From positions 1-41,620 of the forward strand of contig CAIKWU010000483.1 in assembly GCA_903831155.1 (NCBI GenBank): 41,620 nt of DNA. Direction: 5' to 3'. The notes beneath the pieces are model-generated. The model saw nothing but the letters and a program-made list of their open reading frames with translations. It was not told the DNA's origin and made no database searches. This stretch comes from an uncultured Planctomycetaceae bacterium (GTDB lineage: Bacteria; Planctomycetota; Planctomycetia; Pirellulales; UBA1268). Positions 1,239 through 18,138 of the stretch are shown one piece after another (position 1 is the stretch's first letter; the number at the start of each line of letters is the position of its first letter). The position numbers and the translations under genes were made by a program.

Positions 1239-4274
<3,036 letters not shown>

Positions 4275-11337: not shown

Positions 11338-12406
11338 GGCGGCGGCGGGCGGCCGACAGGGCCACCACGCAGAGTTCCCGGCCGCCCGTCGAGAGCTGGC
11401 GGGCCCGGGGCTCGTAGCCCCACGCTCGAAAGGCGTCGAGCCAGCCGGGAAGTTCCGACCCCCGCGACCACTCGGGGAGCTTGAGGGTCGCGATCACGCC
11501 GCGCGGCAGGCACGTCCCGGCTTCGAGCAGGCGGCCGAGGGCGGCCATGGTGCTCGTGGGGTCGATGTTCATGTCGGCGAGCAGCCAGTCGAATCCCCTG
11601 AATCGCCTGAGGGGCACCTCGCGGGCCCGCATCCGCCACTGCTCGAATCGCGCATCCGCCAGGACCGACGCGTCGACGGCCGCGGCGTCGACGCCGACCA
11701 CGTGGAGCCCCGCCTCGAGGAGCCGCTGGCAGGCACCTCCCGGAGCGGCGCCGAGTTCGAGGGCCCGCTGACCAGGCTCGAGCGTCACGCCGAAGGAGGC
11801 GATCGCCTCGTCGAGTTTCAGCCACGCGCGAGAGACGGCGGCCTCGGGCACCCCGCGCGGATAGACACCGCCTGGCCACCTGCTCGCCGGGGCGCCGGCC
11901 CGATGCCAGCCGATCCACCAGCGATCGGGCGAGTCGAGCACGCAGTCGAGCACGAGGTCGCCGGACCGCGTCACCTGGTCGGTGCCCACCGCCACGCCGC
12001 AGGCGGCGGAGACCGCGAGGCGGATGTCGGCGACGGGCGCGTCGACACGCTCATCCCGCCTCCAGACGTGCACCGCATCCCAGGTGCAGCCCGCGACGGT
12101 GTCGGCAGCCTTGGCGGCGAGGTCGGACACCGTAGGACCGGTCACCTGACCGAGCGAGCGAACGACCGTGTGGGCGAAGACAAGGTCGGGCCAGAAGTCG
12201 TCGGGCGGATCGAAGGTCTCCGGCCCGATGCGGAACGTGGCCAGCCCCCGCCGCCAGGCGGCACGCAAGAATGCCGGCAGCACCTCGGCCTGACGGCCGG
12301 CCAGGGCGGCCTCCGCCCCGGGATGGCACGGGCAGAGAATGAAACCGCCCCGGGAGGCTGACGGCCCGCGATTCGAGTGGTGGCGGGGCGGGTGCGACAC
12401 GGGCAT
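11297..12406 (-). CDS. RlmM/FtsJ-like SAM-dependent RNA 2'-O-methyltransferase
   Basis: VSRAWLKLDEA, ALELGAAPGG, VVGVD, WLLADMN, IATLKL; its 3' end overlaps birA convergently by 41 bp. Confidence 0.8.
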   Translation of the reverse strand: MPVSHPPRHHSNRGPSASRGGFILCPCHPGAEAALAGRQAEVLPAFLRAAWRRGLATFRIGPETFDPPDDFWPDLVFAHTVVRSLGQVTGPTVSDLAAKAADTVAGCTWDAVHVWRRDERVDAPVADIRLAVSAACGVAVGTDQVTRSGDLVLDCVLDSPDRWWIGWHRAGAPASRWPGGVYPRGVPEAAVSRAWLKLDEAIASFGVTLEPGQRALELGAAPGGACQRLLEAGLHVVGVDAAAVDASVLADARFEQWRMRAREVPLRRFRGFDWLLADMNIDPTSTMAALGRLLEAGTCLPRGVIATLKLPEWSRGSELPGWLDAFRAWGYEPRARQLSTGGRELCVVALSAARRRPSPVRRATRSPGA

Positions 12407-12413
12407 GCACCGG

Positions 12414-12422
12414 ATCGTACCA
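12414..12422 (-). promoter_or_regulatory. Extended -10 promoter, probably leaderless, for the methyltransferase
   Basis: TG-g-TACGAT, 7 nt before ATG 12406, with no SD. Confidence 0.45.
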
Positions 12423-12434
12423 CCGGAACGAATC

Positions 12435-12470
12435 AGGCCGGCCCGGGCGCCCAAGGGCCCGGGCCGGCCT
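12435..12470 (-). terminator. Perfect 14-bp hairpin, likely the 3' end of the micro-ORF transcript
   Basis: aggccggcccgggc-N8-gcccgggccggcct; only weak U-tracts on either side. Confidence 0.55.
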
Positions 12471-12476
12471 TTCTCG

Positions 12477-12658
12477 TCTGAGCGTGGACGCCCCGGACTT
12501 CCGGATCAGGGGGCGAACCCCCGTCACGCGACAGGCCGGAGCGAAGGGAAGCAGGTCGCCGAGGCGACCCGCCGGATCCCGGAAAGGGATCCCGGCGTCG
12601 AATCCGCGCCGAAGCGACACCCTCGGGGAGACCCCGAGTGCGAAGCCTCGACGTCAGA
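12477..12658 (-). ncRNA. Multi-branched structured RNA region 3' of the Lys-rich micro-ORF
   Basis: Consecutive hairpins on the minus strand, including cgcUUCGgcg and gggggUUCGccccc, closed by tctga/tcaga. Confidence 0.5.
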
Positions 12659-12659
12659 T

Positions 12660-12722
12660 TCAGCCGTGGCCCTTCTTCTTCTTGGCGACCTTCTTGGCAG
12701 CCTTCTTCTTCTTCTTGGCCAT
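12660..12722 (-). CDS. 20-aa lysine-rich microprotein MAKKKKKAAKKVAKKKKGHG
   Basis: ATG with TAGGAG SD 7 nt upstream; all 11 Lys codons are AAG and the other codons are mostly GC3; TGA stop. Below the ORF-track size cutoff. Confidence 0.75.
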   Translation of the reverse strand: MAKKKKKAAKKVAKKKKGHG

Positions 12723-12858
12723 GGAAATGGCTCCTATCCACGAGCACCCGAGCATGGTTCTCACATCCGCTCCCCCGGATGCTCTGAGAGGGGAGAGGAC
12801 GACGTTTCGATGTGGTGCAACGGTGATCACTCACCATCGACCCCGCACCGATGAAGGA

Positions 12859-12920
12859 GTTGTGGATGATGGCCGGGAAAACTGTCAAGAGAACTTCCGG
12901 GAAAAATTCCTTTTTTTTCA
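12859..12920 (-). promoter_or_regulatory. Putative strong sigma-70 promoter with UP-element-like A/T tracts
   Basis: AAAAAAAAGGAATTTTT, then a perfect TTGACA (12888-12883), then a weak -10 (CACAAC at 18 nt). Confidence 0.55.
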
Positions 12921-12979
12921 CCGATGGTGCGCGACGACGAAGCCCCGCAGGGGAGCGCCGCGCTGGTGACGGCGCGTGA

Positions 12980-14200
12980 TCAGGTCGCCGCGCGGTCGTC
13001 CGCGAGTCGCCGCGACACCCACTCCATCAGCATCGAGACCTGCGCGGCGAACGACTGTTCCTGCACACCGACGGGGCTCTTGAAGAAGCAGGCGAGCCAC
13101 TCGAGCGCACCGCTTTCGCCCCCGCGCCGGGCCCGCTCCACGAGCCGCACGAGGTCGAGCACCAGCGGCGCCGCAAGGATCGAGTCGCAGCCCTGCCAGG
13201 TGAACTGGAGGGTCATCGGCGTGCCGAGGAAGCCCTTGAAGTGGACGTGGTCCCAGGCCGTCTTCCAGTCGCCGAGGCTCTCGATGTACTCGATCGAGAC
13301 GTGCGTCTGGGGCGGATAGCCGAGGATGGCGGCGAGGAGATGGTCCTTGCTCTTCACCTTCGCGGCCTTGTTCCGGGGATCGTCGAGCACCTTGCCGTCC
13401 ATGTTGCCGAAGATGTTGTGGCCCACCCAGCTCATCACCTGGAGGTTGCGGGCGGCGAACATCGGGGCCAGCACGCTCTTGAGGAGGGTCTCGCCGGTCT
13501 TGCCGTCGCAGCCGGCATGGGCGACGCCGCGGTCGCGGGCCAGGTCCTGCAGGCAGGCGGGCGGCGCCCCGGTGGACGGGGTGAAGTTGATGTAGCTGGC
13601 CCCCGCCTCGGCCGCCGCCAGGAAATAGAGGCTGCTCGAGGGCAGCGGGCAGCGGTCGGCGTCGTCGAGCAGCGGCTCGAGCTCGGCGAAGTCGCGGGGG
13701 ATCGGCAGGGCCGGCGGCGGCTCGGTGGAGGCGACGTTGACGACGACGACGTGGTCGAGCCGCTCGGCAGCGGCGAACGATGCGATGTCGTGCCGAACCC
13801 GCGCGATGGCGGCCCGGGGTGTTTCCACGACCGCCACGGCCGCGGGGTCGGCGAGGCTCCGGATGCGGTCCCCTGATGCGACGAGCGTGCCGGGCCGCAG
13901 CCGCGGCTCGACCTCGGCGAAGAAGGGGGCGGCGGCGTCGATCAGGTCGGGCGGAATCGCGCGGCTCTCGCTCCACATCCGCCGCGCCTCGTCGCCGAGC
14001 CGACCGGCACGGATGTCGTGACCGCCGACCACGAGGTCGTCGAAGCCGACGAGGCCGAGCCGCGCGAACGGCTCCGTCTCGGTGAGAAGCCCGACGGGTT
14101 CGATCGCACCCCGGCGGAGCGCCGCCAGGCCCGTCATCATCGTCGTGGCCACGCCCCCCTTCGCGCCGATGAGCCAGACACCGACGCGACGCGCGGCCAT
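12980..14200 (-). CDS. ino1: Myo-inositol-1-phosphate synthase
   Basis: WLIGAKGGVATT, VVNVASTE, YINFTPS, DGKTGETLLK, NIFGNMDG, DSILAAPLVLDL, FFKSP. Confidence 0.93.
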   Translation of the reverse strand: MAARRVGVWLIGAKGGVATTMMTGLAALRRGAIEPVGLLTETEPFARLGLVGFDDLVVGGHDIRAGRLGDEARRMWSESRAIPPDLIDAAAPFFAEVEPRLRPGTLVASGDRIRSLADPAAVAVVETPRAAIARVRHDIASFAAAERLDHVVVVNVASTEPPPALPIPRDFAELEPLLDDADRCPLPSSSLYFLAAAEAGASYINFTPSTGAPPACLQDLARDRGVAHAGCDGKTGETLLKSVLAPMFAARNLQVMSWVGHNIFGNMDGKVLDDPRNKAAKVKSKDHLLAAILGYPPQTHVSIEYIESLGDWKTAWDHVHFKGFLGTPMTLQFTWQGCDSILAAPLVLDLVRLVERARRGGESGALEWLACFFKSPVGVQEQSFAAQVSMLMEWVSRRLADDRAAT

Positions 14201-17659: not shown

Positions 17660-18138
17660 CCGGGCGCATGTCAACTCGTTGTCGGCTCAGCGGCGGCGAA
17701 CCGCCATCCGCTCCGGCGACGGTTCCGTGGCCCGCCACCCGACTGCGCCTGACGCCCGGTACGACCCTTCGCATCCTCGTCTCCCACCCATCTCCATGAC
17801 TGCAGCGGCATGATCTCGACGACGAACCCACATTCGCCCGTCAGGTTGTGCACCATGCCAGACTGCTGCCAGACACACCTTGCAACCCATGTTTTCAGGT
17901 CCGTGATCACCGCAGACCTGCCGCGCACCACGCCAACGCGTGCGTGCGTTATTCCTCATACCGCTTCCTGGTTTCTGGTGCTGGATTCCCTTTTTCCATA
18001 AAGAACGGAAGCAGCCAAGAAACCCGGTCGCGAGGGGGCACTTCACGGGGTTGCGGGGGCATTCCAGCGAGGCGTTTTTCGGGTACATTAAAGGGTTTCC
18101 CAGCCAGGCTCATCGGGTTTCCAGGAACGCAGTTGCCG
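17660..18138. other. dnaA-dnaN intergenic region, candidate (degenerate) oriC
   Basis: About 480 nt with lower GC; one near-consensus box TTTTCCATA (17992-18000); canonical position. Confidence 0.3.

Follow-up and report, generated by a model that had tools for sequence, protein, structure and literature searches.

A conserved Pirellulales micro-gene unit predicted to encode a 20-residue lysine-rich peptide behind a pseudoknot leader

The window analyzed in this work is a 41.6-kb stretch of DNA (41,620 nucleotides, nt) from an uncultured freshwater bacterium of the order Pirellulales, which agrees with the planctomycete host assumed in an earlier note made from the sequence alone. On the minus strand of this window, between ino1 (12980-14200; PF07994 and PF01658) and a gene for an FtsJ-like rRNA methyltransferase, lies a small unit containing a 20-codon open reading frame (ORF) for the lysine-rich peptide MAKKKKKAAKKVAKKKKGHG. 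We describe the anatomy, conservation and distribution of this unit and discuss what it may encode. We are highly confident that it represents a real, conserved and self-contained micro-gene unit.

All features of the unit are given on the minus strand and in 5' to 3' order. The A/T tract GAAAAAAAAGGAATTTTTCC (12900-12919), which resembles an UP element and is A/T-rich in 12/12 aligned relatives, is located immediately 5' of the hexamer TTGACA (12883-12888), for which conservation points to a role as -35 element. The lowest-GC 40-mer of the window coincides with this region (12879-12918; GC 0.325 versus 0.706 overall), and TTGACA occurs only twice in the window when both strands are counted. 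The surrounding -35 region TCTTGACAGTTTT is invariant at the 12 aligned loci except for a single T/C difference in its first base. After an 18-nt spacer follows the -10-like sequence CACAAC (12859-12864) as part of CCACAAC, which is unchanged in 12/12 loci. Transcription is predicted to start around position 12852; both this start and the transcript end given below are predictions. A leader of approximately 130 nt then extends to the Shine-Dalgarno (SD) sequence AGGAG (12731-12735), located 8 nt before the start codon and part of an invariant AGGAGCC. The ORF itself (12660-12722, ATG at 12720-12722) spans 63 nt including its TGA stop codon, and its product contains 11 lysines in 20 residues (pI 11.0, net charge of about +10.6).

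The ORF is followed by a hairpin-rich 3' untranslated region (UTR) of about 180-185 nt (12478-12659), with hairpins at 12572-12595 and 12552-12570 and a conserved CCCUUCGCUCCGGCC (12534-12548) that pairs with CCGGGGCG (12489-12496). The 9-nt box ACGAGAAAG (12469-12477) abuts the 5' side of a terminator-like GC hairpin (12436-12469), which comprises 13 contiguous G-C pairs, or 14 pairs with the flanking A-U, followed by a 1-nt bulge and two further pairs. The U-rich tail UGAUUCGUU (12427-12435) closes the unit. Only 63 of its approximately 423 nt (15%) are coding, and the modelled 423-nt transcript folds with -236 kcal/mol versus -193 ± 6.9 kcal/mol for 100 shuffled sequences (z = -6.2). The earlier note had listed the A/T tract with TTGACA at a very AT-rich spot, a leader of about 130 nt, the SD, ATG and ORF with 11 of 20 lysines, some 185 nt of hairpins ending in a 14-bp closing hairpin and a non-coding share of about 85%, and all of these elements were recovered.

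In a search of 41 relatives, the block running from the -35 element to the terminator (query positions ~68-530) was retained in 21/24 genomes of the same genus at 70-85% identity; in relatives from other families the match was confined to the AAG-rich part of the ORF. The peptide is identical in 11 of the 12 aligned species and differs by a single V-to-A replacement in the twelfth, and only two synonymous sites vary in the ORF across these species. Besides TCTTGACAGTTTT and CCACAAC, both AGGAGCC and CCCTTCGCTCCGGCC are invariant or nearly so, as is a stretch of about 65 nt that reaches from GGGGCG through the box and the hairpin. Conservation of the unit far exceeds chance. The earlier note had proposed conservation of ORF and structure as a check of its idea, and the outcome is positive: the block persists within the genus, and the SD and start codon are kept throughout the order.

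The unit is assigned, as its shortest form, to type A, one of two paralogous families that occur across Pirellulales. Type A is characterized by an ATG start codon, an AGGAGCC SD and a pseudoknot leader. In the window, alignment and folding place a variable hairpin P1 with a GNRA-like loop at 12814-12849, and the helix that closes it (alignment columns 40-44 with 117-121) shows compensatory changes in 4/5 pairs. An invariant AACGUCG and stem P2 follow (12764-12806; 5' arm 12790-12801, 3' arm 12764-12776); P2 has 12 pairs, of which 10 display changes on both sides, and 94% of its cells are paired. The loop of P2 contains the pseudoknot 5' strand GAGCAUCC (12777-12784), whose partner GGGUGCUC (12742-12749) ends 6 nt before the SD. 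The resulting helix has 8 pairs (94.2% paired), with compensatory changes in four of them.

P2 was derived with RNAalifold from 28 type-A leaders of the clade to which the window belongs, after which the pairing of GAGCAUCC with GGGUGCUC was added by hand. Across this alignment, 92.7% of the cells are paired versus 34-49% when the partners are slid against each other, 18/25 pairs show compensatory changes, and none of 500 shuffles matches the observed values. A cross-family alignment of P2 and the pseudoknot, which is model-fitted and biased towards structure, reaches 84.4% paired cells (41-57% slid) with 15/20 compensatory pairs and again 0/500 shuffles. The covariance model R1, built on the P2 core, finds exactly one match per genome in 10/10 genomes of the family (E-values of 1e-12 to 1e-23) and weak matches in 5/141 genomes outside it. 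Two of these five weak matches were inspected (genomes G130 and G074); both precede another type-A lysine-rich ORF (K-ORF) and share the AGGAGCC SD and the box-plus-hairpin 3' end, with a stem-plus-pseudoknot of identical plan but different sequence. A test based on the longest complementary run was discarded: its mean of 8.4 versus 6.9 in shuffles does not discriminate in GC-rich sequence, and position-specific covariation was therefore relied on. We consider the strongly covarying stem and pseudoknot of the leader a well-supported candidate for a new cis-acting RNA.

The second type, type G, combines a GTG start codon with a GGAGGA SD and a U-rich element; its long stem GGYGAG...CUCRCC shows compensatory changes in 5/5 predicted pairs, and TACAAC or TACAGT occupies the position equivalent to CACAAC. 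The type-A pattern AGGAGCC ... ATG GCN NNN AAR AAR was found in 69/151 Pirellulales genomes and 48/95 genera, with 7 control matches. The looser pattern GGAG-N6-11-RTG GCN AAR AAR AAR, which covers both types and also picks up some ordinary MAKKK- genes, occurs in 350/401 genomes and 167/187 genera (3 control matches). Many genomes contain both types (for example, G074, G039, G031 and G109). Beyond the order, the GTG-type pattern was detected in 10/151 genomes of the phylum, four of which belong to a single sister family in the class, represented by 6 genomes; the 11 places matched outside the order correspond to five K-rich ORFs of 23-103 amino acids (aa) and six ordinary proteins.

The 3' end combines a variable and a constant part. 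In 19 aligned sequences of the 3' UTR and terminator, 32 pairs are predicted, including 16 terminator pairs that, like the hairpin loop, are invariant in all 19, and 10 pairs show compensatory changes. Together with the leader, this covariation bears out the claim of the earlier note that the RNA flanking the ORF is structured. In other families, the 3' UTR measures 16-215 nt, and in many of them only 16-65 nt; since it is long and structured only in this clade, it does not belong to the core of the system. The conserved core consists of leader, ORF, and ACGAGAAAG box with terminator.

The box ACGAGAAAG is located directly 5' of the terminator stem at 62 of the 74 K-ORF loci, which include both types. 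The 53 unique 3' ends contain 40 distinct hairpins; the stem sequence changes between families and the box remains constant. In the genome of the window, a hairpin follows only 1/25 ACGAGAAAG sites, namely the one in this unit. A role of ACGAGAAAG as a generic terminator feature was rejected, as its extended form ACGAGAAAGRSCC yielded 8 matches versus 9 for the reversed control in five genomes, with a hairpin only at the three matches that are K-ORF loci. All 53 unique 3' ends fold as hairpins of 12-23 pairs, but only 22 of them passed an automated terminator rule (a stem of ≥ 7 bp followed by ≥ 4 U), as the U-rich tail is in most cases paired with the box in the RNAfold models. These modelled folds suggest a box-tail pairing like that of bidirectional terminators; the box stays with the K-ORF even when there is no convergent gene, as in the window. 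A contact of the box with the U-rich element of the type-G leaders, looked at by eye, is not proposed here. One of the other ACGAGAAAG sites in the same genome (contig C527, ~1475-1540, plus strand) is followed 9 nt further on by an ATG that opens an ORF starting MSATATKPAKKKSTLMP, which, from the DNA read by eye, may be another basic protein gene.

The amount of conserved RNA structure raises the question whether RNA is the functional product, as a structured or 3'-UTR-derived small RNA (sRNA) in which the lysine ORF is incidental or a purine-rich (AAG)n element. The 85% non-coding share, the fold z-score of -6.2, the several covarying 3' UTR hairpins, the invariant terminator hairpin and box, and an ORF almost unchanged at synonymous sites within the genus would all fit such a product. 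However, the parts conserved throughout the order are the SD, the start codon, the ORF in its lysine frame and the box with the terminator, whereas the 3' UTR shrinks to a few tens of nucleotides in many families and the leaders of types A and G differ. Across families, the ORFs remain open in the lysine frame and the codons for Ala, Val, Thr, Ser and Pro vary at their third positions, so that synonymous variation is present at the non-lysine codons. An Hfq-binding module of ARN repeats, terminator and U-tail was also tried as an explanation for ACGAGAAAG and dropped because Hfq, the obvious reader of such repeats and tails, was not found (PF17209) in the genome of the window, which is 89% complete; the control search was positive in just 5/14 named genomes. 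The RNA-only explanation does not account for the SD, start codon and lysine frame being kept across the order while the UTRs are remodelled, and we regard it as improbable.

The encoded peptides form a family of 16-103 aa with 35-65% Lys and Arg and a K/A-rich low complexity, as observed across the order and class, and most members measure 20-31 aa. Peptides of the window's clade are 19-25 aa long and mostly end in KKKGHG, and a sister clade contains (VAKKK)n forms of 53-67 aa with a C-terminal KKKGHA. SPKK, a unit of histones H1 and H2B for DNA binding in the minor groove, or SPKR is present in 17/26 basic type-A peptides of other families (listing read by eye). At locus L013 (G027:C94), a K-rich ORF exceeds 160 codons but is interrupted by a long run of N; the parts on either side of this run read (AKKKK)n.

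Comparison with databases returned little. The 20-aa peptide has no match in Pfam at E ≤ 0.01 or in NCBIfam at E ≤ 1. Of six longer relatives scanned, only the 66-aa and 83-aa forms match, weakly, the profiles HC2 (PF07382; 10.2-13.3 bits versus a cut-off of 40) and NF038053 (hist_H1_lk_Burk; 14.4-17 bits versus a cut-off of 80); the other forms, of 67-86 aa, gave no hit in these scans. A phmmer search of the PDB sequences, ribosome structures included, with the 20-aa and 67-aa forms resulted in 0 matches at E ≤ 10. In Rfam, the best match for window positions 12200-13100 has an E-value of 0.24 (16-19 bits versus gathering scores of 32-270), and the sole match for nine type-G loci is L20_leader (28.4 bits versus 58.7). 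No described Rfam or Pfam family, a match to which the earlier note had named as counting against its proposal, thus reached threshold, and its likening of the peptide to histone H1 tails and Hc-type proteins is borne out for composition. The Rhodopirellula-1 motif (Weinberg 2010; not in Rfam), with sequences of the form AACAA..CG.GAU..GAAC..., 42 copies and an overlap with a transposase motif in the part of that source available, is unrelated by eye. The exact 20-aa sequence is absent from a collection of 15 billion proteins, in line with the expectation of the earlier note that gene callers would miss it; that expectation does not extend to a 31-aa call, N-extended from an ATG at 12755, which the collection contains as an unnamed entry. 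Exact look-ups of GTG-start relatives carry no weight, since in the reference these are translated with an initial V. The literature covered, which excluded subscription-only papers, yielded no account of a lysine-rich micro-protein from planctomycetes or of the leader. Within the scope of these searches, the gene family is both widespread in Pirellulales and undescribed.

A tiny, extremely basic, single-copy and widely conserved product with a strong SD could be sought among ribosome- or RNA-associated polybasic micro-proteins of the bL37, bS22, bTHX and eL41 kind, with the leader acting as an autogenous operator in ribosomal protein (r-protein) style. A pseudoknot leader beside the SD, as in several r-protein operators, the adjoining FtsJ/RlmM-like rRNA methyltransferase gene in this genus and the 20-31 aa of most members would suit this identity. 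It is weakened because length varies freely: a range of 16-103 aa, with repeat numbers that differ even among close relatives, is unlike the fit of a protein to a fixed rRNA pocket. Moreover, neither the NCBIfam ribosomal models nor the PDB chains at E-values up to 10 gave a match, and in other families the unit does not have the methyltransferase gene beside it. A ribosomal micro-protein is for these reasons rather unlikely.

Flanking genes vary between families. At 10/17 type-G loci from other Pirellulales families (L118, L120, L133, L134, L136, L140, L142, L144, L028 and L029), the next gene is a convergent gene for an Mrp/ApbC-type Fe-S carrier (PF10609 and PF01883) that shares the terminator with the K-ORF. 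At L125 and L129 (family of G072 and G051), the type-G unit adjoins a ThiI/tRNA-methyltransferase-like gene with an NFACT-R_2 RNA-binding domain. A type-A unit directly downstream of ino1 is found in the window, at 23/80 ino1 loci with the strict pattern and in four genomes of other families (G074, G039, G092 and G059). Further Lys/Ala/Ser/Pro-rich ORFs of 51-82 aa, such as MAKKRKAAKPAAKKSPKKKGAKK, lie downstream of ino1 in distant Pirellulales (L097 and L107, ~3910-4170; L072; L102); no ACGAGAAAG box was found within these four loci.

The polycation could also serve a polyanion other than nucleic acid, such as polyphosphate granules or, given the position beside ino1, inositol-phosphate-bearing lipids. 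For the granules, the composition of the peptide matches that of the K/A/P-rich tail of AlgP, which the available part of PMC9239181 presents as a polyphosphate-granule protein in Pseudomonas. The link to ino1 is purely positional, however; the majority of type-A loci, and every type-G locus sampled, lie elsewhere, and the SPKK motifs in the orthologs favour DNA as the partner. This alternative also appears quite unlikely.

On the other side of the unit, the most likely start codon of the methyltransferase (FtsJ/RlmM-like) ORF is the ATG at 12406. The extended -10-like element TGGTACGAT (12414-12422, minus strand) lies 7 nt upstream, which corroborates the claim in the earlier note that the next gene has an extended -10 of its own. 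With an ATG only 7 nt after TGGTACGAT, the mRNA would be leaderless if this start is correct. The longer ORF proposed by the ORF finder, with a TTG start at 12454, begins inside the terminator hairpin, and the TGGTACGAT motif is common only to the closest relatives (L002; L035 3' flank). Elsewhere in the window, positions 17984-18099 contain the second and sixth most AT-rich 40-mers (GC 0.425 and 0.475), with the only other TTGACA about 300 nt off (17669, minus strand); another strong promoter may lie in this region.

In this genus, the arrangement of promoter, short lysine-rich ORF, hairpins, terminator and co-directional gene is reminiscent of a lysine-sensing leader peptide that controls the downstream methyltransferase gene by transcription attenuation. 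Geometry and synteny contradict this explanation. The stop codon of the ORF is separated from the terminator by about 180 nt and overlaps no alternative hairpins, the ORF length ranges over 16-103 aa, the methyltransferase has its own TGnTACGAT, and there is no logical reason to couple an rRNA methyltransferase to lysine supply. In addition, the downstream gene is not conserved and is convergent at 10/17 type-G loci, so there is nothing to attenuate. We consider attenuation very improbable.

RNA evidence was obtained from contigs of four metatranscriptome runs. Contigs without a single difference to the window cover 12473-12663 (X1), 12477-12666 (X3) and 12687-12844 (X2) and originate from three studies; the X2 contig stops 8 nt short of the predicted start. 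No zero-difference contig was seen over 11954-12430 or 12872-13140 in the four runs, and such gaps prove nothing. Depths of up to ~12,000 in the ORF bin (X6) pool many species and cannot rank expression. In X6, contigs of relatives extend beyond the unit on both sides: record 21 continues from the leader through over 1 kb of upstream sequence, and record 15 joins the 3' UTR, past the terminator, to the methyltransferase gene. The unit had been called independent in the earlier note; this stands insofar as it has conserved promoter-like and terminator elements of its own, but strict independence is less certain given the RNA contigs of relatives that run into both neighbours.

From the observed anatomy, conservation, covariation, distribution and presence in RNA libraries, we infer translation, binding and regulation as follows. 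The reading that we favour, at a probability of roughly 0.55, is that the unit constitutes a monocistronic gene whose polycationic product binds nucleic acids in the manner of a histone H1 tail, with translation gated by the pseudoknot leader. The highly expressed dual-function RNA or ribonucleoprotein and the nucleoid binding proposed in the earlier note would go beyond these observations. A strong promoter-like element would drive a transcript of about 420 nt with a 20-residue peptide of about +10 charge as its only ORF product. The peptide would act as a free counter-ion of the histone-H1-tail, Hc2 or protamine kind, binding electrostatically to DNA or to nucleic acid in general. P2 and the pseudoknot, with the 3' strand of the latter 6 nt before the SD, would set the level of peptide translation, and the likeliest mode would be feedback, in which the fold bordering the ribosome-binding site on its 5' side is stabilized by the polycation or a related cation. 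Termination and stability of the message would be provided by the box together with the hairpin and the U-rich tail. Autogenous feedback as in T4 gene 32 or the r-protein operators is an attractive analogy for such a circuit.

Several observations weigh against this favoured reading. The near-invariant synonymous sites within the genus fit constraint at the RNA level equally well, and as AAG-triplet repeats slip by three, in-frame length changes alone are no proof of coding. Sequence cannot assign a low-complexity polycation to homologs. The -10 element CACAAC is non-consensus, and a consensus promoter and terminator scan flagged neither element of the unit, which is why both were called from conservation. 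The exact contigs establish that the sequence is present in RNA libraries, in which DNA can be present too, and do not prove transcription, strand or ends; the X6 contigs that enter both neighbouring genes make read-through or co-transcription possible. Finally, the leader of type G is built unlike that of type A, so the signal read by the pseudoknot, whatever it may be, is not shared by the whole family.

A bolder extension, which we put forward tentatively and consider doubtful as a whole, would be a self-limiting 'charge-stat'. Free poly-lysine peptide that is not absorbed by DNA would lock the leader pseudoknot, and perhaps ACGAGAAAG and the terminator too, and thereby stop its own translation, such that the cell titrates a protamine-like counter-ion against its DNA content. 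Such a system might be the lineage-wide basis of the condensed nucleoids of Planctomycetia, with types A and G as paralogous circuits and possible relatives in the PVC superphylum.

Unusually condensed nucleoids are a well-known trait of planctomycetes. With a gene for a free poly-lysine peptide that is single-copy and occurs order-wide, a concrete and testable candidate nucleoid factor would be at hand, and the accessible text of a 2011 review names the isolation of PVC DNA-condensing factors as an important step still ahead (PMC3177640). Standard annotation and tryptic proteomics both miss the peptide. In high-GC genomes, 'intergenic' DNA can conceal conserved genes that are only 20 codons long. 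For a phylum in which hardly any regulatory RNAs have been described, the unit also contributes a putative cis-acting leader RNA and, at the 3' end, the sharply conserved box ACGAGAAAG.

The closest known systems in composition are the chlamydial proteins Hc2 (HctB, PF07382) and Hc1 (HctA), which belong to the same PVC superphylum and are likewise Lys/Ala-rich low-complexity polycations. Hc2 varies in size by the number of Lys-rich pentamers, as described in the available part of PMC2848022, and the (VAKKK)n forms are the counterpart here. Repeat number indeed varies in this family, from 19-25 aa in the close clade and 53-67 aa in the sister clades to 16-103 aa overall. Hc1 and Hc2 measure 125-237 aa, whereas the predicted peptide described here has 20 aa and would correspond to the 'tail' alone; this form gives no profile hit, and its 66-aa and 83-aa relatives reach 10-13 bits versus 40 for HC2. 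Expression of hctA is under tight post-transcriptional control through the sRNA IhtA, which acts in trans, whereas the unit carries a predicted pseudoknot leader in cis. AlgP of Pseudomonas and the H1-like proteins of Burkholderia and Bordetella (NF038053) are alike in composition, repeats and presumed electrostatic binding of polyanions, but they are far longer and lack a dedicated structured leader or a conserved 3' box.

The ribosomal micro-proteins bL37, bS22, bTHX and eL41 have 20-30 aa, are more than 50% basic, are often missed by annotation and are fixed in length and sequence. The family described here is alike in size and basicity, but it spans 16-103 aa and has no match among the NCBIfam or PDB entries. 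As for the leader, the T4 gene 32 operator and r-protein leaders such as that of S15 place a pseudoknot just 5' of the ribosome-binding site of an abundant nucleic-acid-binding product. The unit shares with them a conserved structured element that abuts the ribosome-binding site, here of a predicted nucleic-acid binder. It has no sequence or Rfam relation to the gp32 or S15 operators, and the 3' strand of its knot stops 6 nt before the SD, leaving the SD itself outside the fold.

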